Part shown: one piece after another, positions 21,933 to 54,707 of the stretch | Numbering within the stretch: position 1 is the stretch's first letter | How the letters are laid out: each line of letters opens with the position of its first letter | NCBI GenBank assembly: GCA_031368515.1 | Contig: JANMNW010000674.1 | Coordinates: 3,969 to 67,968, forward strand | Direction of reading: 5' to 3' | Origin: Chloroflexota bacterium | GTDB lineage: Bacteria > Chloroflexota > Anaerolineae > J036 > Brachytrichaceae | DNA length: 64,000 nt | The notes under the pieces: generated by a model | Told to the model about the DNA's origin: nothing | Databases searched by the model: none | Seen by the model: only the letters and a program-made list of their open reading frames with translations | Translations under genes and position numbers: made by a program

Positions 21933-22092
21933 CACATGCCTCCACAGTAGCGCGAGTGGCCGTTTCTCGCCGCCTCGCACCCCTATTTTTAACAACGGCC
22001 TGAAACTGGCGCATCGGCCATGTGCGCCTTTCGCACTGACCAGTTGGACAGGTGATCTATTGCGTGGCCTACAATCAGCTCGGAGACTGGAG

Positions 22093-24972
22093 ATGAAAGT
22101 GAAACTTGCACTTCGCCCGCACATATGCCTGGCCGCAGCCATTTGCCTGGCCGGCGTGCCCGCCCGTGGCGCTGGCAGGGCGCATGCCGATTCAGCAGCC
22201 CATCCGCTACCATTCGCGCAGGATTGGTCGACGACATCGTTCATCACAACATCCAACGATTGGTCCAGCGTGCCGGGCATTCTGGGCTATCGCGGAGACG
22301 CGCTGACAAGCTCCGACGGCGCCGATCCGCAGCTCATCCTCGCGCCAGGCGACACCACACCGCTTAACGTGGCCGCCAACCAGACCAACCCAAACACTTT
22401 CACCACGGGCGGGGTGGCCGAGTTCGACACCCTCGCCGACCCAAGCATCGCCCTGCAAGGCTCCGGCACCGCCGACGCGCCGCACATCGTGATCAACCTG
22501 GACACGCGCGGCTGGCAATCTGTGACCGTTGAGTATTTGTTGCGCGATCTGGATGGCTCGGCCGACAACGCCGCACAGCAAGTGGCGCTGCACTATCGCG
22601 TGGGTGCAGGCGGCGGCTTTGTCAATGTGCCGGCTGCCTATGTCGCCGATGCCACCCATGGGCCCAGCCTTGCCACACTCACCACGACCGTGAGTGTGAC
22701 GCTTTCGGCAAGCGTCAACAACAAGCCGCTTGTTCAGCTGCGCATTCTCACAAGCAATGCCGCCGGCAGCGACGAATGGGTCGGCATCGACGACATCCGC
22801 GTCACGGGCGCGCCACTGCCGCCGGGCAGTGCAGATATCTCAGTTGCCAAGAGCGGCCCGGCCAGCGCGGTGCCGGGCAGCCTTGTCACCTACACGCTCA
22901 GCGTGCTCAACTATGGCCCGGCGGCGGCATCCGTTGTGCTTACAGACAGCCTGCCCACCGGTTTCGTCGCGGTTACCCACACGGCATCGGTCAGCGCCAG
23001 CACTGGCAGCGGCTCGCTCGCATGGGACATCGGTTCGCTGGCTTCCGGCGCGGAGCTATCTTTCACACTCGTGCTCAGCGCAGCCGGCGCGCCGGGCATC
23101 TACACCAACACAATAACCGCATCGACTGCGGTGACAGAATCAGACAGTTCAAACAATGCCGCCACCGCGACAACCGTGCTGGGGCTGCCGCCCGTGCCTG
23201 CCCGCATTCGCGACATTCAAGGCGCGTCGCACACCTCGCCGTTGAACGGCAGCGCGGTGGCCAGCGTGCCTGGCATCGTCACACTGCGCCGACCGTCATC
23301 GTTCTATATGCAGGATGCGACATCGGATGGCGATCCGTCCACTTCGGAAGGCATTCTGGTGTTCACCGGCAGCACGCCGACGGTCAACGTCGGTGACGCG
23401 GTGTTGGTTACTGCGACGGTGCAGGAATTTCGCCCCGGCGGAAGTGGCGGCCTCGGCAACTTGACGCTGACCGAGCTGGTCAATCCGAGCGTGATGACCC
23501 TCTCATCAGGCAACATCCTGCCCGCTCCGGTCATCATGGGAATCGGCGGACGACTCGCGCCAACCCAGACGATCGAAAACGACGCCAGCGGCGATGTTGA
23601 GCTGGGCGCGCTGTTCGACCCGGCCAATGACGGCCTCGATTTTTACGAATCGCTCGAAGGCATGCGTGTGCAGGTCAACGATGCGCTGGCCGTCGGCCCA
23701 ACCAGCGACTTTGGCGAAATAGCCGTGGTGGCCGACAATGGCGCGCACGCCGGTGAACGCCAGGTGCGCGGCGGTGTGGTCATCTCGCCCACCGATTTCA
23801 ACCCGGAGCGCATCATCATTGACGATGCGGCGATCGGAGCGGCGATGCCAAGGATGAATGTCGGCGACAGCGCGACTGCGCCGATCACCGGCGTGATCGA
23901 CTATGCATTTGAGAACTTCAAGCTGCTGGTCGCCGCGCCGTTTTCTGTAACGCTAGGCGCGCTCACGCCTGAGACCACCACAGCCGTGCTAAGCGGCACG
24001 CTGGCGGTCGCCACGATGAACGTCGAAAATCTGAGCGTGCTGGACCCCATCACGAAATTCAACCGTCTGGCCGGCATTGTGGTGAACAACCTTGGCGCGC
24101 CCGATCTTCTTGCGCTGGAAGAGGTGCAAGACAACAGCGGGCCAGGCAGCGACGGTGTGGTCGACGCGACGCAGACGTATTCGCAGTTCATCGCCGCGAT
24201 CGCAGCCAGCGGCGGGCCGTCGTATCAATTTACGCAGATCGATCCGGTCAACGGGCAGGACGGCGGGCAGCCGGGCGGCAACATCCGCGTCGGGTTCTTG
24301 TTTCGCACCGACCGTGGTCTCAGCCTGACCGCACGGCCCGGCGCAGTCGCATCCACGCCCAACACGGTGATCACAGGCACCGGCGGCGTGCGCCTGCAGT
24401 ATTCGCCCGGGCGCATCGATCCGGCAAACACCGCGTTTAGCGCCAGCCGCAAGCCGTTGGCGGCCGAGTTCGCCTACCGCGGCAAAGCGCTGTTTGTCAT
24501 CGCCAATCACTTCAATTCAAAAGGCGGCGACGATGCGCTGTTTGGACGCTATCAGCCGCCGGTGCTCAACAGCGAAAATCAGCGCGTGGCGCAGGCTGTC
24601 GTCGTGCGCGATTTTGTCGCGCAGATACTGAGCGCCGATCCGGCTGCGGCGGTGATCGTGCTGGGCGATTTGAACGACTTCGAGTGGTCGCCGCCGCTGT
24701 CCATGCTCAAAGCGGCGGGGTTTACCACGCTGGTCGAAACACTGCCAAAATCCGAGCGTTACACGTATGTGTTCGAAGGCAACTCGCAGGTGCTCGATCA
24801 CATCATGGTGTCGCCGCACTTGCGCGCGGCCTATGCCGCAACGCTCGACATCGTGCATGTCAACAGCGAGTTTTTCGATCAGGTCAGCGATCATGATCCG
24901 CAGGTGGCCACGTTTGAGCCAGTGGCGGACGGGTCGCGGTTATATTTGCCGCTCGTTGCCCACGCACCATGA
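22093..24972 (+). CDS. Secreted ExeM/NucH-type extracellular nuclease (N-terminal accessory domain, DUF11 repeat, OB-like region, endonuclease/exonuclease/phosphatase domain)
   Basis: Signal peptide MKVKLALRPHICLAAAICLAGVPARGAG. DUF11-like ADISVAKSGP...YTLSVLNYGP...ESDSSNN. IRDIQGASHTSPL is typical of this nuclease family. C-terminal EEP motifs VATMNVENL, LALEEVQDN, VLGDLNDF, SDHDP. Confidence 0.8.
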   Translation: MKVKLALRPHICLAAAICLAGVPARGAGRAHADSAAHPLPFAQDWSTTSFITTSNDWSSVPGILGYRGDALTSSDGADPQLILAPGDTTPLNVAANQTNPNTFTTGGVAEFDTLADPSIALQGSGTADAPHIVINLDTRGWQSVTVEYLLRDLDGSADNAAQQVALHYRVGAGGGFVNVPAAYVADATHGPSLATLTTTVSVTLSASVNNKPLVQLRILTSNAAGSDEWVGIDDIRVTGAPLPPGSADISVAKSGPASAVPGSLVTYTLSVLNYGPAAASVVLTDSLPTGFVAVTHTASVSASTGSGSLAWDIGSLASGAELSFTLVLSAAGAPGIYTNTITASTAVTESDSSNNAATATTVLGLPPVPARIRDIQGASHTSPLNGSAVASVPGIVTLRRPSSFYMQDATSDGDPSTSEGILVFTGSTPTVNVGDAVLVTATVQEFRPGGSGGLGNLTLTELVNPSVMTLSSGNILPAPVIMGIGGRLAPTQTIENDASGDVELGALFDPANDGLDFYESLEGMRVQVNDALAVGPTSDFGEIAVVADNGAHAGERQVRGGVVISPTDFNPERIIIDDAAIGAAMPRMNVGDSATAPITGVIDYAFENFKLLVAAPFSVTLGALTPETTTAVLSGTLAVATMNVENLSVLDPITKFNRLAGIVVNNLGAPDLLALEEVQDNSGPGSDGVVDATQTYSQFIAAIAASGGPSYQFTQIDPVNGQDGGQPGGNIRVGFLFRTDRGLSLTARPGAVASTPNTVITGTGGVRLQYSPGRIDPANTAFSASRKPLAAEFAYRGKALFVIANHFNSKGGDDALFGRYQPPVLNSENQRVAQAVVVRDFVAQILSADPAAAVIVLGDLNDFEWSPPLSMLKAAGFTTLVETLPKSERYTYVFEGNSQVLDHIMVSPHLRAAYAATLDIVHVNSEFFDQVSDHDPQVATFEPVADGSRLYLPLVAHAP

Positions 24973-26017: not shown

Positions 26018-27889
26018 CTAGACCGCCACCACGCGCAATTCGATATCGGCCAGCGTCACGGCATCGCCTGGCTGCAGCGCAACCCGGGCATGCGCCGCCA
26101 GCCGCTCGCCATTCTTGCGTGTGCCATTCGACGAATTCAGATCGGTCACATGCAAGCCACCGGCCATGTCAAAGCGCGCGTGCGCGGCCGACAGAAAAGC
26201 GCTCGGCAACGTCACCGCATGCGCGCCGCACGGCGCGCGGCCGAGCACCAAGCCGTCGGCGCTGGCCGGAACCACGATGTCGCGGCCGGCTTGCGCACCG
26301 CTGGACACGCGCAGGCGCAGCCCGCCGCTTGCCACCTCGCCCGGCGCGGCAGCATTGATGAGATGCGTGCCTGACGCGCTGTGACCAAACTCAGCGGCCG
26401 GCGGCGCGACCACCGCGCGTACCAGCGTTTGCGCGTCGCCGCCGACTCGCGCGTGCCGCACACCAAATGCCGCATCTGCCGCAAGCGCATTGTGTGGCCT
26501 GGGCGGCGCATATGAGCGGCGCGCGCGAAGGGCAATGGCCGCGCCGCCAAGCAGCGTGACGACGGTCGTGGCAAGTCCGGCCACACCCGCAAGCGAGATC
26601 GAAACGCTGGGCGCCGGCGCAGCCTCGGCGCCAAGACCCGCCTGCGCCAGCGCGTGCGCAGCTGCAGTATCGGCGACGGCCAGCAACACTACGCGCTCGC
26701 CATACAACCGCATGTCTTGCACGCTGCCGTAGGCCCTGATCTTCAACGCTGTCGGCACGTTCGGGTCGAGCATGGCGGTGTCCAGCGTCAAGCTGAACGG
26801 CGGGCGCGCGGCCACTTCGGTGCGCGCGCCCAGCGTGTACTCTACGCGCTCGATATGCCGCCCCAGCACGCGCGGCGTCAAGCGAATTTGCTGCTCCATG
26901 GGCAGTGCCTGCGGGGCGACGGGTGCGCCTGCCGCCGCCAACTCCGGCCAATCGACAATCGGCGCAGCCGGCATGGGCACGAACGTCTGCGCAGCCTGCA
27001 GCGTGTCCATGCCCGCCCGCACGCGCACCACCGCCATGCGTTGGGTCAACGCCGGCGCCGCCCATGCGTCAAACCGCAGGCGGTAGCGCGCCCTCTGCCG
27101 CCAGGCGATCTGTGCGAAGGCGTGAGCGATGGCGTTCTTTGCGCCGGCGGCAATGTGCAGGCCACCGCTCGCCTGAGCCAGCCGATTGAGCGCGCGATGG
27201 TCCGCCGCGCCCACGCCAATGCTGATGATCGGCACGCCGTGAGCGCGTGCCAATGCAACGGCCTCGTCCAATGCGCACGCCGGTCCCAGCGCACTTCTTG
27301 CTGGCGCATCGCGGCCATCGCCAATTGCAATGATTACGCGCGCAATCTGCTTGCGCGAAGCCGACTTTTCGACTTCATCGCACAGCGCGTCGTAGAAGCG
27401 CGCGCGTGGGTCCGGGAGCAGCGCCTGAATAGCAGCGCGCGCTGATGCCGCGTCATTTTCAATCAGCGGTGACGCTGAGGGTGCATCGACTGACGCGCCC
27501 GCAACACGCCACAGCAAGGCGTCGCCCGGATCAATCGCGTCCAATGCCCTTGACGCGGCGTCGTTGAGCGCGCGCATCGAGCGCATCGGAACGCCAGGGT
27601 CAACGAGCACCGTCACATGCATGCGCACCGCCGGGTCGGCAAGCTTGCGCAGGCTCAACACGCGAGCGGGCGCGCCGGCGCTTTCGACGGTCACATCACC
27701 CGCCTGCACGTCATCAATCGGATCGCCGCGCCGATTGCGCAGCACCAGTTCGCACGACACCTCTGGATAGGCCGCGGCATCACACTTCTCCAGAACGGCT
27801 ATGGCGGAATCCAACGCGCGCGCAGGATTTGGCCTTTGCAGCGCACCGCACCCGAACGCGCACAAAAGCGCGGCCATCAGCAGGCGCAT
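26018..27889 (-). CDS. Signal peptide + extracytoplasmic vWA-like domain + TM helix + cytoplasmic FHA domain
   Basis: N-terminal MRLLMAALLCAFGCGAL. vWA-like blocks VTVLVDPGVPM (degenerate MIDAS), VIIAIGDGRDA, GVPIISIGVGAADHRALNRLAQASGG. TM helix LAGVAGLATTVVTLLGGAAIAL followed by RARR. C-terminal FHA: LVLGRAP..., SAAHARF, DLNSSNGTRKNGERL. Its start lies 1 nt after the upstream stop. Confidence 0.7.
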   Translation of the reverse strand: MRLLMAALLCAFGCGALQRPNPARALDSAIAVLEKCDAAAYPEVSCELVLRNRRGDPIDDVQAGDVTVESAGAPARVLSLRKLADPAVRMHVTVLVDPGVPMRSMRALNDAASRALDAIDPGDALLWRVAGASVDAPSASPLIENDAASARAAIQALLPDPRARFYDALCDEVEKSASRKQIARVIIAIGDGRDAPARSALGPACALDEAVALARAHGVPIISIGVGAADHRALNRLAQASGGLHIAAGAKNAIAHAFAQIAWRQRARYRLRFDAWAAPALTQRMAVVRVRAGMDTLQAAQTFVPMPAAPIVDWPELAAAGAPVAPQALPMEQQIRLTPRVLGRHIERVEYTLGARTEVAARPPFSLTLDTAMLDPNVPTALKIRAYGSVQDMRLYGERVVLLAVADTAAAHALAQAGLGAEAAPAPSVSISLAGVAGLATTVVTLLGGAAIALRARRSYAPPRPHNALAADAAFGVRHARVGGDAQTLVRAVVAPPAAEFGHSASGTHLINAAAPGEVASGGLRLRVSSGAQAGRDIVVPASADGLVLGRAPCGAHAVTLPSAFLSAAHARFDMAGGLHVTDLNSSNGTRKNGERLAAHARVALQPGDAVTLADIELRVVAV

Positions 27890-27890
27890 G

Positions 27891-29450
27891 TCAGATCACC
27901 ACCCGCAAGGCCGTCGATCCCAGCACCAGCTCGTCGCCAATATCCACCACACACGGCCCATCGATGCGTTGACCGCGCACCAGCACTCCATTGGCCGCGC
28001 GCGGCATCGGCCGCACGTGCCAGGCGTTGTCGGAAAAATGGAGCTCCGCATGCCAGCGCGAGATTTCGCGGTCGGCCGGGTTGAGCATGTCGCGGCCCAG
28101 CAGCATGGGCGAGCCCGTCACTGGCACGATGCGGCGCGCAGCAGCCACATGCAGCCGTATCGGCCGCAGCGCGTGTGGGGGCTTGTCCGCATCATGCGCT
28201 TGCGCGGCCAATCCATCCGCGCCCCGGACATCCGCGATGAGGCGCGCAAGTTCGCGCGCGCTGATCATGCGCCTGCGCGCATCCATGCCCAGCGCAAGAT
28301 GAATTGCCGCCCGCAGCTCGCGCGGCAGCGCCAGCCCGGCATCATCAAGAGCAACAGATTGGCCAGGCGCCGACCTCATTTGCGCATCATCGCATCCAAG
28401 CAACTGGCAGGCCAGGCTGGCGAATGCGCGCATGTCCGACGCCGCGCCGCCGCCGTCATCTGCCCGGGCCGCCGCGCCCGTTCGCGCCGCAAACAGCCGG
28501 GCCAGGCCCGCGTTGGCCAGTTGAATGTGATTGTCGGCGCCGATCAACACGTCGCCGGCTGTCAGCGCGCCATGCGCAAGCCCGGCGTCATGCAGCGCTG
28601 CCAACGCTTCCGATAGCTCATGCATGAGCCGCAAGGCTTCATGTTGCGGCGCCCGCTCGCGCATGCGGCCGGCCAGCGAGCCACCATGCGCAAAGGCTTC
28701 GATCAGATAAGGCGGTTCATGCGCGTCATCACCGCCATAGATCGGCGCCACAAGCGCATGCTTGAACGCCATCCCGGCGCGCAGATGCCGGGCAAAGCTG
28801 GCGCGCAACCCGTCCGGATCGCGGCGCAACAGCGTGTCGTTTAGAAATTTCACCGCAACCGCGCATCCCTCGCCCTCAGCGCAGCGCGCATCAGGCAGCC
28901 GCCCCGTCCGTAGCGCCGCCCGCCGCACCACGAAATGCTGGCCGACATGCACCACCTCGTCCAAATCGCACTGGCTGAGCCGAATCGGCTGTGAGCCCGC
29001 GCACGCAGCAGGCACGGCAGCGGCGCAATCGTTCGGCACAGCGCGTGGAATGGGCCACTCGCACCCAGCGCCAAGCACGGCATACACCGAACGCCCAATT
29101 TGGAATTGATCACCCGGCGCCAGCAATTCGTCGAAGACACGCCGGCCGTCGATCCAGGTGCCGTTGGCGCTGCCCAGATCGCGCAAGCGCAGTTCCGTCG
29201 CCGCGCGTTGCACCATCGCATGCTCGCGCGACGCATCCGGATCGGCGATGCGCGCCGGGCAGTGCGCCCCGCGGCCAATCAACAGCGCCTCGTCGCCAAT
29301 CCGGTAAAACGCGCCGTCGTTGGCGCCGGCCACACAAGCCAGCATCAAGCTCGGCTGGCGGCGGCGCTGCCGGCGGCGCAACAGCACCACCACGACCAAC
29401 ATAAGCAAAAGCGCCATGCACGGCGCGGCCCAAAACATCCACATTGGCAT
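27891..29450 (-). CDS. Membrane-anchored FHA - pseudokinase - FHA protein
   Basis: TM helix MWMFWAAPCMALLLMLVVVVLL + RRRQRRRQ. FHA1: LLIGRGAHC..SREHAMV..DLGSANGTWIDGRRV. The kinase-like core has VAVKFL, YLIEAFAHGGSL and LHDAGLAHGALTAGDVLI (HRD changed to HGA), then IQLANAGLA (DFG changed to NAG). FHA2: LLGRDM..SRWHAEL..ANGVLVRGQRI. The start is ATG 29450, or 29444 which has better SD spacing. Confidence 0.7.
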   Translation of the reverse strand: MPMWMFWAAPCMALLLMLVVVVLLRRRQRRRQPSLMLACVAGANDGAFYRIGDEALLIGRGAHCPARIADPDASREHAMVQRAATELRLRDLGSANGTWIDGRRVFDELLAPGDQFQIGRSVYAVLGAGCEWPIPRAVPNDCAAAVPAACAGSQPIRLSQCDLDEVVHVGQHFVVRRAALRTGRLPDARCAEGEGCAVAVKFLNDTLLRRDPDGLRASFARHLRAGMAFKHALVAPIYGGDDAHEPPYLIEAFAHGGSLAGRMRERAPQHEALRLMHELSEALAALHDAGLAHGALTAGDVLIGADNHIQLANAGLARLFAARTGAAARADDGGGAASDMRAFASLACQLLGCDDAQMRSAPGQSVALDDAGLALPRELRAAIHLALGMDARRRMISARELARLIADVRGADGLAAQAHDADKPPHALRPIRLHVAAARRIVPVTGSPMLLGRDMLNPADREISRWHAELHFSDNAWHVRPMPRAANGVLVRGQRIDGPCVVDIGDELVLGSTALRVVI

Positions 29451-29466: not shown

Positions 29467-29781
29467 TCAGGCCCCGCCCCGCCGCAAGCGGTCTTCGATT
29501 TCCCGGCGCGCGCGCTCCTCGGCTTCCTGCACAATGTGGGCCGTATCTCGCAAAATTCCAGCAATGCGCGAAAGCATGCCTGGCAGCTGCGCAGAACGCG
29601 CGGCGCACGACTGCGCCTGCGCGCTGAATTCGTCGGAAGCGATGCCGTCCCAGGCCTCGAGTGCCTGTTGCGTGGCCTGCCCCGCCTGAGTCAGCACGTC
29701 GGTTTCGCCCGCTGCGCCTCGCTCAAACTCGCGGGCCACGGCGCGCATCTCGTCATAGTCGATTCCCAAAATAAAGGACAT
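29467..29781 (-). CDS. WXG100-family protein (paralogue 4)
   Basis: 104 aa helical hairpin. MSFILGIDYDEM N-terminus, central W-D-G, GGAG upstream of the ATG at 29781. Confidence 0.8.
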   Translation of the reverse strand: MSFILGIDYDEMRAVAREFERGAAGETDVLTQAGQATQQALEAWDGIASDEFSAQAQSCAARSAQLPGMLSRIAGILRDTAHIVQEAEERARREIEDRLRRGGA

Positions 29782-29805
29782 CTTTCGCTCCAACAGCCGG
29801 CGGGG

Positions 29806-30114
29806 TCACCCATCGGCCGAAATCGTGTGCGCAATCTCGGCGCGCGCCAGCGCCTCATGCTCTTCGACGATGCGCGCGGTTTCGCGCACATCGGTTGCCA
29901 GTTCGTCAAGCAGCGCCAGCGCGCGGCGCATGCGCGTGCGGCAGCTGAGGAGCTGCGCCATGAACTCCTGTTCCGCCACGCCATCCCAGCCTTCAAGCAA
30001 TTGCCGGTTGCGCGCATCGGCCCGGGCGAGGCAGCGCTTGATCACGCCGCCCTGCGCATCGAATGCTTGAGCCGTCGCCCGCAGCGCGTCGTATGGCGCC
30101 CGTATCGAGCTCAT
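29806..30114 (-). CDS. WXG100-family protein (paralogue 3)
   Basis: 102 aa with central LEGWDGVAEQEF. ATGA overlap with the stop of paralogue 2. Confidence 0.8.
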   Translation of the reverse strand: MSSIRAPYDALRATAQAFDAQGGVIKRCLARADARNRQLLEGWDGVAEQEFMAQLLSCRTRMRRALALLDELATDVRETARIVEEHEALARAEIAHTISADG

Positions 30115-30434
30115 GCTTCGCCTCCGGCAGTGTCATTGACCACGGCTGTCTCAATGGCGTCGCGCGCGCGCTGCTCCGCCAGGCGAATGGTGCGCGCCGT
30201 GATGTGCAGCGCAGTGCTGATCTGGTCAAGCACGAGCGGCACATGGCTCATGTCGCGCAGGCAGGCGGCGTAAGCCGGGTCAAATGCCGCGCGCGCCTTG
30301 CCCAGCCACAGCGGCGTCAGCTCGCCCACCGCTCGCTCAATGGCATGTATTGCCGCACGGGCTTCCTCTGCGCAACCGCCGATATCGAGCGCCACCGCCG
30401 TCATTTCGTCATAATTCAGGCGAATCTGGCCCAT
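30111..30434 (-). CDS. WXG100-family protein (paralogue 2)
   Basis: 107 aa. MGQIRLNYDEM, central W-L-G. AAGGAAGGA lies upstream of the ATG. Confidence 0.8.
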   Translation of the reverse strand: MGQIRLNYDEMTAVALDIGGCAEEARAAIHAIERAVGELTPLWLGKARAAFDPAYAACLRDMSHVPLVLDQISTALHITARTIRLAEQRARDAIETAVVNDTAGGEA

Positions 30435-30527: not shown

Positions 30528-30839
30528 CTAATTCGTGTCGTCCACGATCGCGCTGCCGATCTGCGCCCGCGCTTCTTCTTCAGCGCGCTGCACGAGGTCG
30601 GACGCTGTTTTGATGGCGGTGGAAATTTCGCTCATCATCAGCGGCGTGTGCTGCAGGCGCGCCATGCACGAATCGATCTGGGCGAGGAACTCGGTGTCCG
30701 CCACGCCCTCCCAACCCGCGCTCAGCTTGTCCGACTCGCCTTTCACGCGCTTAACCAGCTCGTCCGCCTGCTGCGACATCTGCATAAAGGTGTTCGAGCT
30801 CGCCGCCATCTCTTCATAGTTCATCTTGATTTGGCTCAT
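30528..30839 (-). CDS. WXG100-family protein (paralogue 1)
   Basis: 103 aa. MSQIKMNYEEM, central SAGWEGVADTEF. AAAGGAG lies upstream of the ATG at 30839. Confidence 0.85.
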   Translation of the reverse strand: MSQIKMNYEEMAASSNTFMQMSQQADELVKRVKGESDKLSAGWEGVADTEFLAQIDSCMARLQHTPLMMSEISTAIKTASDLVQRAEEEARAQIGSAIVDDTN

Positions 30840-30955: not shown

Positions 30956-31582
30956 TCAGGCGAGCTTGAGCATGTAGCCCTTGCCGCGCACAGTCACGAT
31001 GAGGTCGCCCGCATCAGGGCTGATGCCGCGCAGCCGCAGCCGCAACCGGCTCAGCACTTGATCGAGCGCGTCGGAATCCATCAGGCCGTCGTAGTTGTGG
31101 CCCCATACCGCGCGGGCGCAATCGTGCCGCGCGCACACTTCACCGCGATGCTCAAACAAGTGCAGCAACAGGGCTTGTTGATCGCTGGACAAGTCGATTT
31201 TTTCGGCGTCCCAGAAAAAGCACCAGACTTTGAAATCGAAGCGCAAATGCGTGACCGGCTGCACAGTCTTGTCTTTGTCCAGATACACAATCAACCCGGT
31301 CGGATCGCCCAGGCCGATCTCGTCACCGTGCTTCAGCTTGTGGGGCGCACGCAACGGCCGGCCGTTGACAAATGTGCCATTCTGGCTTTGGCTGTCGCAC
31401 AAGACAAAGTAGTGACCATCCCAGGCAATGCGCGCATGCAGCCGTGATGTCAATGGACGCAGCACCACCATGGCGCAATCGCTCGCCCGGCCCAGCGTGC
31501 AGCCGCCGGCAGGCAGCACAATCATCTGCGGTGTGACTTCGGGAAAATTCGCCCGCAGTGCTTTGGTCGATGTCTTTGTCAT
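30956..31582 (-). CDS. FHA domain + OmpR/PhoB-type winged-helix DNA-binding domain transcriptional regulator
   Basis: FHA: CTLGRASDCAMVV..SRLHARI..DSQSQNGTFVNGRPL. C-terminal wHTH: LSSDQQALLLHLFEHRGEVCARHDCARAVWG...DALDQVLSRLRLRL...IVTVRGKGYMLK. ATG at 31582 lies within the longer ORF. Confidence 0.8.
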   Translation of the reverse strand: MTKTSTKALRANFPEVTPQMIVLPAGGCTLGRASDCAMVVLRPLTSRLHARIAWDGHYFVLCDSQSQNGTFVNGRPLRAPHKLKHGDEIGLGDPTGLIVYLDKDKTVQPVTHLRFDFKVWCFFWDAEKIDLSSDQQALLLHLFEHRGEVCARHDCARAVWGHNYDGLMDSDALDQVLSRLRLRLRGISPDAGDLIVTVRGKGYMLKLA

Positions 31583-31608
31583 CGTTTGCTCCCCAGAAAC
31601 GTTGTGAA

Positions 31609-34600
31609 TCATTGATTTTCCGGCGCTTTTAGCACAGCTTGCCCAATCGCGCTCAGCCAGTCGCCCCAGCCCCAGCCCTCCTCTTGCGGCACGGCAAATC
31701 GCGCGCGCAGCGGTTTGGACTGCCTGCGGCAGGTGTAGTAGCCGTGCCCGGCCGGCAACGGCTTGTCGCGTTCGCCCACGGGCAAGCGCAATCCAAAACC
31801 GACTGATTGCAGGCCGCCCAACACCACCCACGACTGCGCGTCCTTGATGCGTTTGAGCCAGCCGTCCAGCGCATCAAGCGCGCGATCAGGCCCGGCCATC
31901 AGCACATGAAAAGGCAAGCGTAAGCCGGCGCGTTCCAACAGGCCATCCAGCCGCTCTTTGGCCACGCGCGGCAATGCGCGGACAAAAGCGTCGGCGTCGT
32001 CAATCGCAAGCACCACCGCGGGCAGGCCGCGGGCTATCGTGGATGCGCTCCATTCCGGCGTCGCCGCGCGCGCGGCATGCTGCATCTCGCCCATGCTTTC
32101 CAGCGTGGCGGCAAGCTCATCAAGCAGCGCAGGAATTTCATCGCCATGCTGCGCACACTGGCGCACGTGCGGCAACCCGGACAGCGCGGCCAAGCCGTCG
32201 TCCGCGCCGCTGACATCGCACAGATACACCATCAGCTGGTCGGGATCGCGCGCACGCGCCAGCGACAGCAGCATGCTTTGCAGCACGGAGGTTTTTCCGC
32301 TTTGCGGCGCGCCGGTGACAAGCACGTGCGGGCTGGCGCCGATGTCAATCCGCAAAGGTTGTAAGTCCGCGGTCTGCAGCCCAACCGTGGCGACAAGCGG
32401 CTCGCCGGCACGTTCGCCGGACACACGCGCATGCGGCGCATCAGCCAGAAGCGCGCGCAAAGTCAACTCGGCCGGCATGGTCGCAATCGGCGGCGCGCGC
32501 CGCCCGGCGTATTGCGCGCGCAATGCGCCAGCCGCTTCGGCCAGTTGCGCCGCGCGCTCGGCATCGGTGGCGCCCGGCGCTGGCAGCGCCGCCTGGAATT
32601 CCAGCGGGCTCTGCCCCATCCGTTTGATCAGCCCGCGCCCGGGCGTCGCCGCCGGTTCCAGGCCGCCCGTCCGTCCAACCACTGCGGCATAGTCGGAGCG
32701 ATCCGCCAGTTGAAACGCAAGCGCGGCCGTGATATTGCCGCTCACGCGGCTGCGCACGTCAAGCGGTTTGTTGGCGCTGATCACCACATGCATCCCCAGC
32801 GGCGCGCCTTCGCGCACTACAGTGACCAGCGTATCTTCGTAGTCCATGCGGGCAAAAGCCGGATAGTTGTCGATGACCAGCAGGATCGCCGGCATGCCAG
32901 CCGCGGCGCCCAGATCGGCAAACTTGCGGCCGGCCAGCGCGTCTTTGCGCAAGGCCAATTCGCGCCGCAGCTGGCGAAACAGCCGCATCAGGCGTTCATC
33001 GTCGTCTTCAAACAGCACGGCGCCCACCTGCGGCAGCGCAGCCAACGCCGTCAGGCTGCGGCTGCCAAAGTCCAGCACGTAGGCATTTAGCTCGTCGGGC
33101 GAATGCGCACGCGCCAGCGCTAGCAACAGTGTTTGCAGCAAGGTTGATTTGCCTGCACCGGCCTGGCCGAACATCATCAGGTGCCCATCGCGGCCCAAAT
33201 CGATGATTGCCGCATCCTGCCGGCGCTCGCGCGGGTCGTCCATGCGGCCAATGACTGCGCGCAACCAGCCCGCAGTGTCGCCGGATGCGGCCGCCGATTC
33301 AAGCAGCAGCCGTTCGGGCAATGGATCGAGCCAGATGCGTTCGGCCGCTTGCACGTGTTCGGCGAGCGTTGTCCGGCGCACGTGGTCCATCAGCGCAGCC
33401 AACTGGCGCGGCTGTTCGCCGCCTGGCGGGCGCGGTTGCGTGATCCAGCAGCGCCGTTGCAGATCGGGCGTGCCATCGAGCAGCAGCGGCGCCACGTACC
33501 GTTGCGCCGCGTCCGGGTCTTCGTCCGGGTCGTAGCGCGCTCCGCCATACGCCGATTGAAATCGCTCATAGCGCTCATCGCTGCCCACCAGAAAGTATGC
33601 CTCTCCCGCGCGCGCAAGGTGAGCGGCATCGGGGCGTTTGAGCATTTCCTTGCTGTCACTTTCGTCCTGCACGCGCAGGCACAGCTTGAAGCGGCTGTTC
33701 GACCAGATCTGGTCGTCTACAACGCCAGACGGTTTTTGAGTGGCAAGGATCAGATGCACGCCCAGGCTGCGGCCGATTCGCGCGGCGCTGATCAGCTGCT
33801 TCATAAAGTCGGGCTGGTCGCGTTTCAGCTCGGCAAACTCATCCACGATGATCACCAGACGCGGCATGGCCTTGAAGCGATCGGCGCCGCCTGCCGCATA
33901 TAGGCGCTGATAGTCGTCGATATAGGTCACGCTGTGCTGATCAAAGATGCGTTGACGCCGCTTGAGCTCGCTGGCCAGCGCGATAAGCGCGCGGCGCGCG
34001 GCGCTGGGCTCAACGAGGTTGGTAATCACGCCGCTCAAATGCGGCAGGTCGATATCCGGCACGGGCGACACCGTGCGCGCGGCCGAACGCTGGCGCAGAA
34101 ACGCATTGGCCATGCCGCCGCCTTTGTAGTCAATCAACAAAAATGAAATCCACTCCGGGCTGAAGCGCACCGCCAGCGAAGCGATCAGGGTCTGCAACAA
34201 CTCGCTTTTGCCCGCGCCGGTTGTGCCGGCGACCAACCCATGCGCGCCATGGCCGCGATCTCCATCGCGCAAATCCAGCTGCAGCAATCGTCCACCCGCC
34301 GCGCGGCCGATCGGCACGACAAGCGAGCCTGCGTCCAAATGCGCATGCGTGCGCCACAGCCCGGCGACATCCACATCCTCCACGTGGCGGGCATCCCACA
34401 GTGAAAGCAGCGTCACGGCCGCAGGAATTTCAGCGGGTGCGGCGGTGCGGCGCAGCCGGATGGCTGACAGCGAGCGCGCCAACGCCTCGCACTCCAGCCC
34501 CGGCAGCGCGTCTACGCTGTCGAGCTGTCGCGGGCGGCCGTTGTCGGTCGCCGCAAACAGACGCGCGCGGCCGGCTTCATAGTGGACATAGGCGTCGCAC

Positions 34601-35946
34601 TCGCGCGGCAACAGATGCCGGTGGTCCGCCAGAAACACCGCGGTAAACCCTGCGCCGCGCGCCAGCGCAAGCAACTGCGGCAGCGCAGCATCTTGGCCAA
34701 ACAGGCCGGGCTCCGCCAGAAAGAAAAGGGTATGGCGCGGAAGCTGTTCAGCCCGCGCCTTGCGATGCGCGGCCAGCAAGACGGCGTCAAGCGCGCGTTT
34801 GGCGCCGTCGGGGTCGCACGCCAGCAGGCGATGGCGGTGTTCGGCATCCCACGCATGCGGCAACCAGCGCATCCAGCGCCACGCATCGCCCTCAGTTTCC
34901 GGGAAAACCGCGGCGAGTGCGAGATCGTCCGGGCTGTGATGCGCGGCCAGCTGCGCCGCCAGCGCGAAACAGGCGCGCAGCAGCGCGGCGCGCGGGCCGG
35001 CCAGCCCCAGCGCGCGCAACTGGCCGACCGGCACGCACAGCGGCACGCGCTCGATCGCGGCAAACGCGTCCGCCAGTTCAAGCATGCGGTCGCCCAGCGC
35101 ATCGGGCGCCAACAACGGCTCGTAGCGCGCAGTCTTGATCGTGAAGCGGGCGGGCGCGCGCCCAAGACCGATACGCGCCTGCAAGTAATCGGGGTCGCCC
35201 GGTTCGCGCATCCACACGCGCGCGCATTGCCGCACGCGGCCGCGCAGAGTGTGCAAGTCCGGGTCCTCGTCCAGCGCTTCGATTCGCAGGCGATTGACTT
35301 GCGCCGCCAGCTGCGCGCGACGTTGCTCCAGATATGAGTCGTAACGCGCGGCGCGTTCAGCCATATCGCGGGCATGGCGGCGCCGTTCGCTGACATAGGA
35401 CCACAGGCCTGTCAGCGCGGACGCGCCCATGAATCCGGTGGTGAGAAAGTTCATCGGACCGTTGGCATGCGGCAAGCTCACCGTTGCGGCCAGAGATGCG
35501 ACGGCAAACGCCGCCGGCATTACGATGCCCGGCCATTGCAGGCGCGGCGCGCTTGGCGCGTTGGGCGGCGCGGTCAGTTCGATCTCACCCCCTTCCAATT
35601 GAAAAAATGGACGCGGCGGGCGCTGGAAGAATGGCTGCGGCTTGGCGGGCAAAACGGCGGGCGAGCGGTCGCTGTGTTGCGGCCGCTCGGATACGCAGAC
35701 CAGATGCACCTGCGCGCCATCCCAAACACCAGCGTGATCCAGACTGTCCTCTGCCCGCAGCGGCACGCGCGCGTCGCATTGCTCGGCATGCGAGATGATC
35801 CAGTGTTGGCCGGCAGGGCATCGCCAGTCCAGCGCGCTGGCGATGGCCGGCGCAAGGTCATAGGCTGGCACATCAGCGGGCGCGCGCACGTCTTCGGGCG
35901 GCCAGCCTGCGGCATTGGCTGTAACAAACACCTGTCGCATCGTCAT
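31609..35946 (-). CDS. EssC/EccC-like FtsK/SpoIIIE-family type VII secretion ATPase with N-terminal YukD-like ubiquitin fold
   Basis: N-terminal ~85 aa resemble YukD/EsaB (QHWIIS..., SLDHAGVWDGAQVHLV). Two TM helices (WPGIVMPAAFAVASLAATVSL, MNFLTTGFMGASALTGLWSYV). Three P-loops: GTTGAGKSE, GQAGAGKST, GAPQSGKTS. Walker B motifs: VIIVDEFAEL, LLVIDNYPAF, VLAIDDADAF. The start is 35946 or 35940, not 35979 (see findings). Confidence 0.9.
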   Translation of the reverse strand: MTMRQVFVTANAAGWPPEDVRAPADVPAYDLAPAIASALDWRCPAGQHWIISHAEQCDARVPLRAEDSLDHAGVWDGAQVHLVCVSERPQHSDRSPAVLPAKPQPFFQRPPRPFFQLEGGEIELTAPPNAPSAPRLQWPGIVMPAAFAVASLAATVSLPHANGPMNFLTTGFMGASALTGLWSYVSERRRHARDMAERAARYDSYLEQRRAQLAAQVNRLRIEALDEDPDLHTLRGRVRQCARVWMREPGDPDYLQARIGLGRAPARFTIKTARYEPLLAPDALGDRMLELADAFAAIERVPLCVPVGQLRALGLAGPRAALLRACFALAAQLAAHHSPDDLALAAVFPETEGDAWRWMRWLPHAWDAEHRHRLLACDPDGAKRALDAVLLAAHRKARAEQLPRHTLFFLAEPGLFGQDAALPQLLALARGAGFTAVFLADHRHLLPRECDAYVHYEAGRARLFAATDNGRPRQLDSVDALPGLECEALARSLSAIRLRRTAAPAEIPAAVTLLSLWDARHVEDVDVAGLWRTHAHLDAGSLVVPIGRAAGGRLLQLDLRDGDRGHGAHGLVAGTTGAGKSELLQTLIASLAVRFSPEWISFLLIDYKGGGMANAFLRQRSAARTVSPVPDIDLPHLSGVITNLVEPSAARRALIALASELKRRQRIFDQHSVTYIDDYQRLYAAGGADRFKAMPRLVIIVDEFAELKRDQPDFMKQLISAARIGRSLGVHLILATQKPSGVVDDQIWSNSRFKLCLRVQDESDSKEMLKRPDAAHLARAGEAYFLVGSDERYERFQSAYGGARYDPDEDPDAAQRYVAPLLLDGTPDLQRRCWITQPRPPGGEQPRQLAALMDHVRRTTLAEHVQAAERIWLDPLPERLLLESAAASGDTAGWLRAVIGRMDDPRERRQDAAIIDLGRDGHLMMFGQAGAGKSTLLQTLLLALARAHSPDELNAYVLDFGSRSLTALAALPQVGAVLFEDDDERLMRLFRQLRRELALRKDALAGRKFADLGAAAGMPAILLVIDNYPAFARMDYEDTLVTVVREGAPLGMHVVISANKPLDVRSRVSGNITAALAFQLADRSDYAAVVGRTGGLEPAATPGRGLIKRMGQSPLEFQAALPAPGATDAERAAQLAEAAGALRAQYAGRRAPPIATMPAELTLRALLADAPHARVSGERAGEPLVATVGLQTADLQPLRIDIGASPHVLVTGAPQSGKTSVLQSMLLSLARARDPDQLMVYLCDVSGADDGLAALSGLPHVRQCAQHGDEIPALLDELAATLESMGEMQHAARAATPEWSASTIARGLPAVVLAIDDADAFVRALPRVAKERLDGLLERAGLRLPFHVLMAGPDRALDALDGWLKRIKDAQSWVVLGGLQSVGFGLRLPVGERDKPLPAGHGYYTCRRQSKPLRARFAVPQEEGWGWGDWLSAIGQAVLKAPENQ

Positions 35947-35984: not shown

Positions 35985-36020
35985 ATGAAGCTGACAGTTG
36001 CTGACAGTTCTGTCAGGTTC
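35985..36020 (-). promoter_or_regulatory. 36-bp operator-like element, copy 2 (upstream of essC-like gene, in the divergent region with the kinase)
   Basis: The plus strand reads ATGAAGCTGACAGTTGCTGACAGTTCTGTCAGGTTC, one mismatch from copy 1. Confidence 0.75.
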
Positions 36021-36081
36021 AGTTGAGCCGATCACATAATGGCGCGCAGCGCGAATTTATGTACACAAAACGACGCTATAG

Positions 36082-36145
36082 CCGGAGAAAACTTTAAGAG
36101 TTTTCATCTCTTAAAGAGATGAAAACTCTTAAAGTTTTCTCCCGG
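36082..36145. repeat. AT-rich 64-nt near-perfect palindrome with nested GAAAAC-N7-GTTTTC sites
   Basis: GGAGAAAACTTTAAGAGTTTTCATCTCTT (36084-36112) | A (36113) | AAGAGATGAAAACTCTTAAAGTTTTCTCC (36114-36142) forms 29 perfect base pairs. The outer CC/GG pair follows after a 1-nt bulge. Each arm contains GAAAAC-N7-GTTTTC (36087-36105 and 36121-36139). Confidence 0.85.
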
Positions 36146-36188: not shown

Positions 36189-38201
36189 ATGGGCACGTCC
36201 CAGGCTTGTCAAGGGGTTGTTGTGGCGTTTGATCTGATTGGAAAAACGCTCGGCCCATACCGCATTGACGCATTGCTCGGCGCTGGCGGCATGGCCGAGG
36301 TGTACAAAGCCTTTCAACCGAGCATGGACCGCATTGTCGCGCTCAAAGCGCTCCCGGCCGCGCTCAGCGCACAGCCGGAGTTTCGCGAGCGCTTTCGCCG
36401 CGAAGCAAAGCTGATCGCCCAGCTCAAGCACACGCACATTCTGCCGGTGTATGACTTCGGCGAAGCCGAAGGCCACGCCTACCTGGTCATGCCGCTGATG
36501 GAAAACGGCACGATCGCTTCGCGCGTGCGCGGCCGCCGCCTCCCGCTCGAAGACATCGTGCGCGTCGGCACGCAAATCGGCGACGCGCTCGATTACGCGC
36601 ACGAAAAAGGCATGGTGCATCGCGATGTCAAACCAGGCAACATCCTGCTCGACACGCGCGGCAATTGCCTGCTCAGCGACTTTGGCATCGCGCGGATGAC
36701 GGTCGACACGCTCACGCCGGATCAATCGCGCATGGGCACGCCTGCCTACATGTCGCCCGAACAAGCCGAAGGCGACAACATCGACGGCCGCTCCGATGTT
36801 TATTCGCTGGGCGTGGTGCTCTATGAACTGGCCACTGGGCGACGACCGTTTGACTCGTCCGACCCCAATGTGCTGATGTATCAGCACGCACACAATACGC
36901 CGCCTGCCCCGCGCAGCATCGATCCCACCCTTCCCGAGCAGCTGGAATGGGTCATCCTGCATGCGATGGCCAAACGCCCGGCCGACCGCTTCATCAATGG
37001 CGCTGAGCTTGGCCGGGCGCTGCGCCCGCTGATTATCAGCGAGCGCAGCGGTCCCGATGCCGCACGCCCGCGCATCGCCCCGGATTTGCCGGTCGCCAGC
37101 AAAGTTGCCGGGCCTGTGGCCTCGGATGCCGCAACTGCGCCGCGCCCCAACGCCGAAGCCCCGCCGCCCGCGCGGAATGCGCCGCTCAATACCGCGCTGC
37201 TGCCCGCAGGCGTGGCGCGCCCGGGTGCCGCGCGCCCGGCTTTCCAACCGGCGCCCTTCGCGCCACCGGCGCCGGCCAAAGCGCGTTGGCGCCTCCCCAG
37301 ATTCAGACGGATTTTCGCCATCGGACAGAGCGCACGGCCGTCGCCGGCAAGCTACGGATATGGCGGCGCGCACGAACGGTCCAGGCCGCTGTTCAACACG
37401 CTTTTTGCCGGGCTGGCCGGCGCGATTATTCTGGTGCTGCTGGCCAGCGCGGTCAGCAACTTCTTGCGCAGCATCAACGAGCAGGCTGCGGCCATCGCGC
37501 CGCCCACCGCCACCTATGCGGCTTTCGCCACAGCGTTGGCTGATGCGACAGAAACGCCGGCGCCGGCTGAGACTCCTGCGCAAGTGACAGTCGCCGCCGC
37601 AGCCGATGCCCCGGCTGTTGCAGTGACAATCGCGCCCGCGCAAGTCACCGAAACGCCTTTGAGCGCGCGGCCGCTTGCCGAGCCGGCGGCCTGCGCGCGC
37701 GCCAGCGCGCTGACGCTCGACCCCGGCCAGCTCCAGGGCGTCGGATGTCCATCGCAGGCATTGGTGCCGGCGCGGCGCGTGATGGTGCAGACATTCGAAC
37801 GCGGCATCATGGTGCTGTTTCTGCGCAACAACAGCGCGTTGAACGGCGGGGTCATCTACGCGCTCGCAAGCGATGGCCACGCCTGGCGCATCAGCGACAC
37901 CTGGGCCAGCGCTTCACGCAATCGCGACACTTGGTACTCGTGCCGCGCGGCGCCCGGGCAATCGCCCGCGCAATCCGGTGTGCCATGGCGCGGATTTGGG
38001 CGGGCATGGTGCAACGACCAGGCGCTGGCCTCTGCTTTGGGTGCGGCCGTCACGGAAGAATCGGATGCGCGAGCGGCTTTCCAGGCGCATGCCAACGGGC
38101 GCGTCTTTCGGCTGGACAACTGGCCCGGCGCGCCTGGCTTTGCGCCGGAGCGCATCTATGCCGTGGCCATGCTCGACAATCGCTCCGAGCAGTGGCGCTG
38201 A
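36189..38201 (+). CDS. Receptor-type Hanks Ser/Thr protein kinase (kinase, Pro/Ala-rich linker, TM helix, Cys-containing ectodomain)
   Basis: LGAGGMAEVYKA, VALK, HRDVKPGNILL, SDFGIA, GTPAYMSPEQ. TM helix LFAGLAGAIILVLLASAVSNFL. The ~230-aa C-terminal domain has 4 Cys. Confidence 0.9.
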   Translation: MGTSQACQGVVVAFDLIGKTLGPYRIDALLGAGGMAEVYKAFQPSMDRIVALKALPAALSAQPEFRERFRREAKLIAQLKHTHILPVYDFGEAEGHAYLVMPLMENGTIASRVRGRRLPLEDIVRVGTQIGDALDYAHEKGMVHRDVKPGNILLDTRGNCLLSDFGIARMTVDTLTPDQSRMGTPAYMSPEQAEGDNIDGRSDVYSLGVVLYELATGRRPFDSSDPNVLMYQHAHNTPPAPRSIDPTLPEQLEWVILHAMAKRPADRFINGAELGRALRPLIISERSGPDAARPRIAPDLPVASKVAGPVASDAATAPRPNAEAPPPARNAPLNTALLPAGVARPGAARPAFQPAPFAPPAPAKARWRLPRFRRIFAIGQSARPSPASYGYGGAHERSRPLFNTLFAGLAGAIILVLLASAVSNFLRSINEQAAAIAPPTATYAAFATALADATETPAPAETPAQVTVAAAADAPAVAVTIAPAQVTETPLSARPLAEPAACARASALTLDPGQLQGVGCPSQALVPARRVMVQTFERGIMVLFLRNNSALNGGVIYALASDGHAWRISDTWASASRNRDTWYSCRAAPGQSPAQSGVPWRGFGRAWCNDQALASALGAAVTEESDARAAFQAHANGRVFRLDNWPGAPGFAPERIYAVAMLDNRSEQWR

Positions 38202-46622: not shown

Positions 46623-46632
46623 GGGCGAGAGG

Positions 46633-47679: not shown

Positions 47680-47750
47680 GAACTATGAATTCCTCCATGC
47701 GAAATGTTCTGCGAGTGCGCAACTTCCAAGTTGCTTGCCAAAAGCGTGGG

Positions 47751-47801: not shown

Positions 47802-47823
47802 GGCATTGTTTTTGGACTGTTGC

Positions 47824-50178: not shown

Positions 50179-50207
50179 CGGCGGCAATGCACAATCGCAG
50201 CAAGCAG

Positions 50208-54704: not shown

Positions 54705-54707
54705 TTT

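Follow-up and report, generated by a model that had tools for sequence, protein, structure and literature searches.

Among type VII secretion systems (T7SS), those of Bacillota have the ubiquitin-like assembly factor as a protein of its own, and those of Actinomycetota have it as a domain within EccD. A locus in the 64,000-nucleotide stretch of Chloroflexota DNA analysed here (the window) raises the question of whether this factor can also be built into the secretion ATPase itself, and what it may do there. The original prediction had proposed that an EssC/EccC-type ATPase of this locus carries a YukD/EsaB-like ubiquitin fold at its N-terminus in place of FHA domains, and sequence, predicted structure and comparative evidence agree with this proposal. 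The background on which it relied, namely that YukD/EsaB stands alone in T7SSb, that a ubiquitin-like domain sits on EccD in ESX systems and that EssC of Firmicutes begins with two FHA domains, is in accord with the literature.

Domain architecture of the ATPase

From its N-terminus, the protein comprises the YukD domain, a disordered linker, a pair of TM helices and a stalk, followed by DUF/D0 and the three P-loop domains. The gene and its segments are as follows:

31609..35946, minus strand: YukD-EssC fusion ATPase gene, EssC/EccC-type, 1443–1445 aa (ORF; Pfam)
35683..35940, minus strand: YukD/EsaB-like ubiquitin-fold (beta-grasp) domain, aa ~3–88 (PF08817, AF2, PDB profile search)
35632..35682, minus strand: flexible linker, aa ~89–105 (pLDDT <50 for aa 90–103; alignment indels)
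35389..35631, minus strand: conserved pre-membrane motif (FQRPPRP...ELxAPP) and two TM helices, aa ~106–186 (hydropathy, model)
34432..35388, minus strand: stalk helix and DUF/D0 degenerate ATPase-like domain, aa ~187–505 (Foldseek)
33517..34359, minus strand: D1, aa ~530–810 (Walker A GTTGAGKS, Walker B LVIIVDEF)
32557..33309, minus strand: D2, aa ~880–1130 (Walker A GQAGAGKS, degenerate Walker B LLVIDNY)
31687..32454, minus strand: D3, aa ~1165–1420 (Walker A GAPQSGKT, Walker B VVLAIDDA)

The longest possible ORF extends to 35979, and the probable start lies at 35940 (MRQVFV), as judged from the start called in the orthologue of a related locus (L002). Besides YukD, Pfam detected three stretches of FtsK_SpoIIIE (224 bits), and the best sequence match in the PDB was B. 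subtilis YukB (E=1.3e-105), T. curvata EccC being matched with E=1.7e-91. Since residues 214–909 of YukB were aligned to aa 95–806 of the fusion ATPase, the YukD domain takes the position of the two FHA domains of YukB. All elements of the EssC/EccC architecture are present, from the two TM helices and the stalk through DUF/D0 to the three FtsK-like P-loop domains, and by its sequence the protein is the motor/channel ATPase belonging to a type VII-like (WXG100) system of Chloroflexota with a predicted role in secretion.

The Pfam-A family YukD (PF08817, IPR024962) was matched at aa 19–82. When aa 1–100 were searched alone, the match was significant (29.5 bits, E=1.3e-6) and above the gathering score of 27, whereas within the full-length protein it reached 24.8 bits, slightly under this score. 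The YukD profile was matched in all five N-termini of the clade (best E=1.2e-9), and a 57-sequence YukD family profile compared with the PDB found ubiquitin-like domains only, including those of EccD1 and EccD3 (E 1e-4 to 5e-3). The AlphaFold2 (AF2) model built from a 66-sequence alignment (pLDDT 83–97 over aa 1–89) contained strands at 5–12 and 15–23, a helix at 28–38 and strands at 47–56, 59–62 and 79–86, that is, the beta-beta-alpha-beta-beta-beta order of a five-stranded, ubiquitin-type beta-grasp. In P0004, a member of the clade, the first strand is seemingly missing. Profile and model together identify the N-terminus as a YukD domain with a predicted beta-grasp fold, placed where YukB has its FHA module.

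This domain is the least conserved region of the protein, with 26–33% identity between distant clade members versus approximately 50% overall. Such divergence, along with the strand apparently lost from P0004, could be expected if the domain were a functionless, decaying remnant or a ubiquitin-like domain recruited outside T7SS assembly. We consider this very unlikely, because D19, V20, P23, D25, P27, L31, A72 and G77 are invariant across the clade alignment, the signature residues are common to approximately 150 stand-alone YukD-like proteins, and the fold is predicted with high confidence.

The linker that follows differs in length and sequence among the orthologues, and the alignment to YukB starts, at its residue 214, with the pre-membrane/TM stretch. 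The two TM helices that had been claimed were recovered, the first by a hydropathy scan (aa 138–159) and the second from the model, in which helices span 138–157 and 164–227; we read aa 164 to ~185 as TM2 and the remainder of this helix as the stalk. Between the stalk and D1 lies a degenerate ATPase-like DUF/D0 domain (aa ~256–500), as in every EssC/EccC, which is an addition to the original prediction. The best Foldseek match of the stalk and DUF model was the corresponding part of YukB (9qks_G, E=2e-21), and further matches were EccC of ESX-3 and ESX-5 and the EccC5 DUF crystal structure 8rin; E-values against the YukB, EccC3 and EccC5 structures ranged from 2e-21 to 1e-14. The Walker A motifs are located at positions 574, 927 and 1212. 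An acidic Walker B (DE) occurs in D1 only, while D2 has DN and D3 has DD, exactly as had been stated (VDEF, IDNY and IDDA).

The fusion is genuine and rare

The continuous fusion ORF was found in five sequences, i.e. in the window and in P0001–P0004, which show 95, 83, 51 and 50% identity, respectively. The fusion locus is a compact T7SS-like cluster that is fully syntenic in two other assemblies (L001 and L002). Two related loci resemble it in the N-terminal half of the ATPase (30–38% identity) and in having the FHA-wHTH regulator and WXG100-like genes, but their YukD domain resides on a separate polypeptide, joined to WD40 or FHA. In L003, the ATPase begins at the equivalent of aa ~107, i.e. 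at the conserved pre-membrane motif, and the YukD-WD40 gene ends 3 nt upstream of the ATPase gene; its YukD domain is 36% identical to that of the window in a pairwise comparison (E=9e-11). In L019, the ATPase gene is followed directly downstream by the gene for a YukD-FHA protein, whose YukD module is homologous to that of the window (hhalign probability 94%); the ATPase of this locus has approximately 98 N-terminal residues without a Pfam match. As the related loci encode YukD in a separate protein, the window gene can be regarded as a Rosetta-stone fusion.

The adjacency of the YukD and ATPase genes in these relatives means that the loss of one stop codon would generate such an ORF, and the ORF lists were purely mechanical, thus a frameshift in sequencing or assembly, or an over-extended ORF, could have joined a small separate yukD to essC. 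An artefact of this kind is extremely improbable, since the ORF is unbroken in five independent sequences from different assemblies, which are 50–95% identical and have linkers of differing lengths; no in-frame stop separates the domains, gene callers place the starts of the orthologues at the YukD N-terminus, and the upstream promoter region is conserved. In a set of 1.84 billion representative proteins, a YukD domain on an EssC-type ATPase occurred only in the cluster of the window protein itself, and no published description of a YukD-ATPase fusion was found in the literature searched. The fusion is real and rare.

Genes surrounding the ATPase

The flanking scan covered selected ORFs of the locus between 24969 and 43445, leaving aside at least one small conserved ORF beside the solute-binding gene, and revealed the following features:

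30956..31612, minus strand: FHA and OmpR-type winged-helix (Trans_reg_C) regulator (Pfam FHA 63.9 bits, Trans_reg_C 52.1 bits)
30528..30839, minus strand: WXG100 protein 1, 103 aa (PF06013, 51.4 bits)
30111..30434, minus strand: WXG100 protein 2, 107 aa (PF06013, 37.4 bits)
29806..30114, minus strand: WXG100 protein 3, 102 aa (PF06013, 39.4 bits)
29467..29793, minus strand: WXG100 protein 4, 108 aa (PF06013, 28.8 bits)
27891..29450, minus strand: membrane-anchored FHA-pseudokinase-FHA protein (Pfam FHA and kinase; N-terminal TM segment)
26018..27889, minus strand: VWA-TM-FHA protein (Pfam, TM segment; syntenic in L001)
36189..38201, plus strand: divergently oriented Hanks-type Ser/Thr kinase (Pkinase 164 bits; TM segment)
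36084..36142, no strand: perfect 29+29 nt palindrome, candidate operator in the divergent promoter region

All four WXG100 genes exceed the gathering score and lie within 2 kb of the ATPase gene. The locus therefore encodes an FtsK/SpoIIIE-type membrane ATPase together with WXG100 proteins, as WXG100 systems do in the broad sense, and the genomic association of the YukD family with an EssC/EccC ATPase and WXG100 proteins takes here the form of a fusion to the ATPase. The ATG of the regulator at 31612 overlaps the stop codon of the ATPase gene (ATGA), with an alternative ATG at 31582, and this FHA-wHTH gene is kept in L001, L002, L003 and L019. The pseudokinase has HGA in place of HRD and NAG in place of DFG, and the catalytic motifs are absent from the window, L001 and L002 proteins alike; its matches are to generic families of kinases and not to that of YukC/EssB, and it can therefore be equated with EssB by analogy only. 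The Hanks kinase, syntenic in L001 and L002, has intact HRD and DFG motifs, and the palindrome is near-identical in L002. The combination of this kinase with the FHA-wHTH and VWA-FHA proteins suggests that expression and/or assembly of the system is controlled by threonine phosphorylation.

Proposed role of the tethered YukD domain

In the 2025 cryo-EM structure from B. subtilis, YukD sits between the FHA domains and the DUF of YukB, occupies the DUF face to which the inner ubiquitin-like domain of EccD binds in T7SSa, buries approximately 30% of its surface on YukB and contacts a hairpin in D1; recruitment of the YukC pseudokinase requires YukD (PMC12637312). By analogy with these non-covalent contacts of YukD and EccD, we infer that the tethered domain would dock on the DUF as well. 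The beta-grasp domain, held by the flexible linker of approximately 15 residues, would fold back onto the cytoplasmic DUF/D0, and probably also onto the D1 hairpin, through the face that B. subtilis YukD and the inner EccD domain bind. Docking may lock the stalk and DUF in an assembly-competent conformation and would fix a 1:1 stoichiometry, while the docked YukD may create a surface that recruits a peripheral scaffold. The most probable candidate for this scaffold is the membrane-anchored FHA-pseudokinase-FHA protein, whose single chain combines FHA and pseudokinase elements that in Bacillota are distributed over EssC and EssB. The suggestion that this domain acts on the ATPase in cis, by docking or by regulation, is backed by the YukD–YukB DUF structure and by the split YukD gene abutting the ATPase gene in relatives. 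Taken as a whole, a covalent YukD on the secretion ATPase, folded onto DUF/D0, appears to be the best explanation, and we favour it with fair confidence.

The tethered domain may instead act in trans, docking on the DUF of the neighbouring protomer in the hexamer or serving mainly to bind a partner, for instance the FHA-pseudokinase-FHA or the VWA-FHA protein, and would then be a latch for oligomerisation or recruitment, not a regulator of its own ATPase. In ESX, the DUF of one EccC accommodates two ubiquitin-like domains of EccD, each in a different region, and the FHA-stalk linker of YukB touches the neighbouring DUF (PMC12637312); the disordered linker could let YukD reach a neighbour, and in relatives YukD is joined to the protein-interaction modules WD40 and FHA. 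Against this, YukD is attached where the N-terminal module of YukB adjoins its own DUF. We regard action in trans as rather unlikely and docking in cis as the tentatively preferred reading.

This natural fusion is evidence from evolution, independent of structural work, that the ubiquitin-like component functions with the motor ATPase as one physical unit; structures had led to this conclusion only in 2025 for Bacillota and in 2019–2021 for mycobacteria. The rule of a ubiquitin-like module in contact with the ATPase, to which almost every T7SS conforms, is thereby extended to a third phylum and a third delivery mode. No experimental data on any Chloroflexota T7SS-like system were found in the literature searched, and an ATPase with YukD in a single chain offers a simplified target for structural and biochemical work. 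The shuffling of the accessory domains (YukD, FHA, pseudokinase and WD40) between polypeptides also helps to decide which contacts are ancestral.

Comparison with known type VII secretion systems

The closest likeness is to YukB and YukD of T7SSb (PDB 9qks), with an ATPase of the same family whose segments follow one another identically, from the pre-membrane linker and the two TM helices through stalk and DUF to the three P-loop domains, a ubiquitin-like domain of the same Pfam family, and WXG100 genes nearby. However, YukD is a separate protein in T7SSb and EssC has two FHA domains, whereas the window ATPase carries YukD in its own chain and gave no FHA match; EssA, EssB/YukC and EsaA/YueB were not seen among the flanking genes scanned, FHA is found on the separate membrane-anchored pseudokinase, and the host belongs to Chloroflexota instead of Bacillota. 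In T7SSa (PDB 6sgw, 7np7, 4kv2), a ubiquitin-like domain fused to a membrane component binds the EccC DUF, and the window protein is similar in that its stalk and DUF model matches EccC3 and EccC5 and the YukD profile matches EccD1 and EccD3. The carrier of the domain is, however, the 11-TM EccD in T7SSa and the ATPase itself in the window, and EccB, EccD, EccE and mycosin (MycP) were found neither among the flanking genes scanned nor in the syntenic loci.

According to the parts of Garrett et al. (2024, PMC11217815) drawn on here, T7SSc–T7SSj share with the window the minimal set of ATPase, WXG100 proteins and a ubiquitin-like module, and they often include kinases and FHA proteins and in some cases an ATPase that lacks FHA, but their ubiquitin-like TsxB is a discrete small protein, which is absent from T7SSd. 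The same parts present the survey as one of Bacillota and Actinomycetota only, and they describe neither a YukD-ATPase fusion nor an FHA-wHTH regulator nor an FHA-pseudokinase-FHA protein (PMC11217815). The original prediction had seen in this locus a distinct T7 subtype, which fits its gene content, with FHA-wHTH, FHA-pseudokinase-FHA and VWA-FHA conserved and the T7SSa and T7SSb families not seen among the flanking genes scanned. We tentatively propose, as a possibility still short of probable, an undescribed Chloroflexota subtype that has redistributed among its chains the domains making up the core unit of Bacillota (EssC-FHA, YukD and the EssB pseudokinase), YukD residing on the ATPase and FHA on a membrane-anchored pseudokinase, in which YukD is a module mobile within this lineage (ATPase, WD40, FHA), and in which a dedicated Hanks kinase would gate both assembly and expression via FHA readers, including the FHA-wHTH regulator acting at the palindromic operator.

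Domain architecture of the ATPase

The ATPase gene and its nucleotide-binding motifs (D1 being the first P-loop ATPase domain) were assigned as follows:

31609..35946, minus strand: YukD-EssC fusion ATPase ORF, 1445 aa; the longest possible ORF extends to 35979
Walker A motifs: GTTGAGKS at aa 574, GQAGAGKS at aa 927, GAPQSGKT at aa 1212
Walker B motifs: LVIIVDEF in D1, LLVIDNY in D2, VVLAIDDA in D3

The start of translation (MRQVFV) was placed at 35940 of the window according to the called orthologue in a related assembly (locus L002). A Pfam-A search with the full-length protein matched FtsK_SpoIIIE in three stretches (224 bits summed). The catalytic acidic pair of Walker B is kept only in D1, VDEF standing against IDNY and IDDA, exactly as the original prediction had stated. 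The closest PDB sequence was Bacillus subtilis YukB (9qks_G, E=1.3e-105), with aa 95-806 of the window protein aligned to residues 214-909 of YukB. Since the two FHA domains of YukB precede residue ~212 (PMC12637312), this alignment puts the YukD domain in the FHA position. The span that had been described as a stalk region does contain the stalk, but it also holds the usual degenerate ATPase-like domain (DUF/D0, aa ~256-500), because in Foldseek searches the stalk and DUF/D0 part of the predicted structure matched YukB (E=2e-21), ESX-3 EccC3 and ESX-5 EccC5 (E 1e-18 to 1e-14), and also the crystal structure of the EccC5 DUF.

The YukD family (PF08817) was detected at aa 19-82 of the full-length protein with 24.8 bits, slightly below the gathering score of 27, while isolated aa 1-100 exceeded this threshold (29.5 bits, E=1.3e-6), and all five N-termini of the clade formed by the window protein and its four closest relatives (P0001-P0004) matched the family (best E=1.2e-9). 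AlphaFold2 modeling of aa 1-540, based on a 66-sequence alignment with this segment of the window protein as the first row, gave a mean pLDDT of 87.8 and a pTM of 0.71, with pLDDT values of 83-97 over aa 1-89. DSSP assigned strands 5-12 and 15-23, helix 28-38, and strands 47-56, 59-62, and 79-86 in the model, so the predicted succession is the ubiquitin-type order, and the following linker (aa 90-103) was disordered. The confident model needed the 66-sequence alignment, as single-sequence AlphaFold2 on aa 1-238 was uninformative (pLDDT 29-45 over the domain). When a 57-sequence family profile was compared with PDB sequences, only ubiquitin-like domains were found (E 1e-4 to 5e-3), including a redesigned ubiquitin, ubiquilin UBLs, and the N-terminal domains of EccD1 and EccD3; the smaller five-sequence profile gave insignificant matches only (enterotoxin IIB, E=0.065; EccD1, E=0.16). 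Foldseek matches of the 540-aa model were dominated by the stalk and DUF, and its ubiquitin-like part found EccD5 chains only, at E~1e-4 with poor TM-scores.

An exhaustive HMMER search of 1.84 billion representative proteins with the five-sequence clade profile returned 152 matches at E<=1e-3, the majority being proteins of 77-250 aa with the matching region at the N-terminus. PF08817 was the sole family or one of the families listed for seven of the ten survey matches scanned. Two motifs, DhxhPADVPxxxLAxxIAxALGW and ETLAxAGVWDGAxLxL, are common to the small YukD-like proteins and the window protein. One of the ten scanned matches, P0095, is a eukaryotic polyubiquitin of 16 repeats that matches both ubiquitin and YukD models; it was recovered through a C-terminal strand motif, which indicates that this YukD subfamily is still near ubiquitin in sequence. 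A disordered proline-rich tail is present in many YukD-like relatives that stand alone (alignment A5, P0099-P0243; about 100-160 aa), and its C-terminal end is conserved as G[FY]VWKQLD. This end resembles a short linear motif for docking, and a counterpart was absent from the window protein.

We rejected a degenerate FHA domain as the N-terminal module, since FHA was not matched there and the model shows a beta-grasp fold. The Pfam match, the AlphaFold2 model, the protein survey, and the PDB profile matches thus agree that the N-terminus is a YukD-type beta-grasp; both a significant YukD match and a beta-grasp in the predicted structure were found, so neither of the results that would have refuted the original proposal was obtained. 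Considering these results, we are very nearly certain that a YukD-type beta-grasp is fused to an EssC-type ATPase.

Conservation and rarity of the fusion

Close relatives of the ATPase fall into four protein clusters only (95, 83, 51, and 50% identity), and all four are full-length and bear the N-terminal domain. Locus L001 (encoding P0003) and locus L002 (encoding P0002) show synteny with the window across the whole gene set. A frameshift or artefactual fusion was ruled out because the ORF is continuous in five independent sequences, in which the linker lengths differ. The next-best relatives have at most 35% identity and are mostly FHA-bearing or actinobacterial EccCa proteins, none of which had a precomputed YukD match. 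The sole EssC-sized protein with the N-terminal domain in the 1.84-billion survey was P0001 of the same clade, but this survey detects clade-like YukD domains only and more divergent fusions could exist. A scan of genome contigs missed the close relatives and found only distant ATPases, mostly of the actinobacterial FHA type, while a metagenome scan for related ATPases yielded two loci. We concluded that the fusion is real, conserved in its clade, and rare.

YukD genes beside related ATPases

More distant ATPases were found that lack the YukD domain themselves and adjoin a separate gene encoding it. The ATPase of locus L003 (38% identity over aa 107-532) begins at the conserved pre-membrane motif, and a YukD-WD40 gene (2736-3929; YukD 44 bits, followed by a WD40 propeller) ends 3 nt upstream of it. 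This YukD is 36% identical to that of the window protein over 80 residues (E=9e-11), and both start with MR(Q/R)VFVT. In L019 (ATPase of 30% identity), the ATPase gene is adjoined at its 3′ end by a YukD-FHA gene (9896-10543), the YukD of which matches the clade profile with an hhalign probability of 94%; the L018 ATPase lacks the N-terminal domain wholly. As these arrangements differ, YukD appears to be a mobile module in these systems, which resides on the ATPase in the window clade, and the split genes are Rosetta-stone evidence. As far as the literature was searched, YukD-WD40 and YukD-FHA architectures have no prior description. The L003 contig (JAYTNY010000075.1) is labelled as a ‘Roseobacter sp.’ MAG, and its WXG100/EssC-type locus is closest to the Chloroflexota clade; the label may result from mis-binning or mislabelling.

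Genomic neighbourhood

The following genes surround the ATPase gene:

first ATG at 31612 (alternative ATG at 31582), minus strand, downstream of the ATPase: regulator with FHA and OmpR-type winged-helix domains
minus strand, downstream of the ATPase: four WXG100 genes, each exceeding the Pfam gathering score
27891..29450, minus strand: FHA-pseudokinase-FHA protein with an N-terminal TM anchor (14443-15969 in L001, 16511-18058 in L002)
minus strand, downstream of the ATPase: VWA-TM-FHA protein
36189..38201, plus strand: divergently transcribed kinase with intact HRD and DFG

The ATG of the regulator overlaps the stop codon of the ATPase as ATGA (31609-31612), likewise in L001, which suggests that the two genes are translationally coupled. 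The L002 regulator appears to use a second ATG, 30 nt downstream. In the FHA-pseudokinase-FHA protein, HRD is changed to HGA and DFG to NAG (NAG, NGG, or NVG across the window, L001, and L002), and since the losses recur in both other loci, the kinase-like domain is a conserved pseudokinase. The EssA, EssB/YukC, EsaA, EccB, EccD, EccE, and mycosin families were unmatched among the flanking genes scanned.

The Hanks kinase and YukD-EssC genes are separated by an AT-rich divergent promoter region, almost identical in L002, in which 29+29 nt form a perfect palindrome (GGAGAAAACTTTAAGAGTTTTCATCTCTT / reverse complement, 36084-36142). A tandem GCTGACAGTT in two copies and a 12-nt inverted repeat lie near it; a second interval, 35986-36021, is listed beside that of the palindrome. 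The palindrome is a candidate operator of the FHA-winged-helix regulator.

Elsewhere in the window, the best named relatives of a GroEL paralogue are from Chloroflexota (56-60% identity; Anaerolineae, Ca. Roseilinea, Caldilinea), which makes a member of this phylum the most likely host. The ORF at 20700-22280 (minus strand) matched NCBIfam NF049943, ‘type III sulfide quinone reductase, selenoprotein subtype’ (627 bits, cut-off 525), from aa 118 of the mechanical ORF. The GC content falls from about 0.63 to about 0.55 at ~46000-64000, where the genes are of exopolysaccharide type (Wzx-like flippase, O-antigen-ligase-like protein, asparagine-synthase-type amidotransferase), and this part may be an acquired polysaccharide island.

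Proposed mechanism

In the T7SSb core unit of B. subtilis, YukD is held between the FHA domains and the DUF of YukB (~30% surface buried) and probably contacts a D1 hairpin too; both recruitment of the YukC pseudokinase and complex formation in vivo require YukD, and in ESX systems the inner ubiquitin-like domain of EccD sits on the same DUF region (PMC12637312). From these contacts we infer that the tethered YukD domain docks on the DUF, in cis or in trans. The flexible linker of ~15 residues joins at the point where the N-terminal module of YukB emerges beside the DUF of the same chain. Docking would fix the stoichiometry at 1:1, stabilise a conformation competent for assembly, and help to recruit a peripheral scaffold. 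We consider this course of docking and assembly rather probable.

The obvious candidate scaffold would be the FHA-pseudokinase-FHA protein. FHA and pseudokinase elements are split between EssC and EssB in Bacillota, whereas a single chain joins them in the window, and this protein may be an analogue, not a family member, of the pseudokinase scaffold EssB/YukC. Phospho-threonine control is suggested by the active kinase at the locus together with several FHA readers and the FHA-winged-helix regulator, and Garrett et al. speculated on such control for several T7SS variants (PMC11217815).

Comparison with known systems

Earlier beta-grasp surveys recorded YukD only as a stand-alone protein or fused to an actinobacterial multi-TM protein. 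A description of a YukD-EssC/EccC ATPase fusion was not found in the literature, although an unpublished database architecture entry could exist. WXG100 proteins were already noted in Chloroflexota, and a description of a T7SS from this phylum was not found in the literature searched. The fusion is unsurprising in principle; it corroborates the recently established contact between YukD and the ATPase, and structural studies gain a simplified target.

The ATPase belongs to the EssC/EccC family and its N-terminal domain to the YukD family, while the system as a whole falls into neither T7SSa nor T7SSb by their membership tests. T7SSc-j were defined in Bacillota and Actinomycetota (Garrett et al., 2024; PMC11217815), and their ubiquitin-like TsxB is always a discrete protein or absent, whereas in the window clade YukD is fused to the ATPase.
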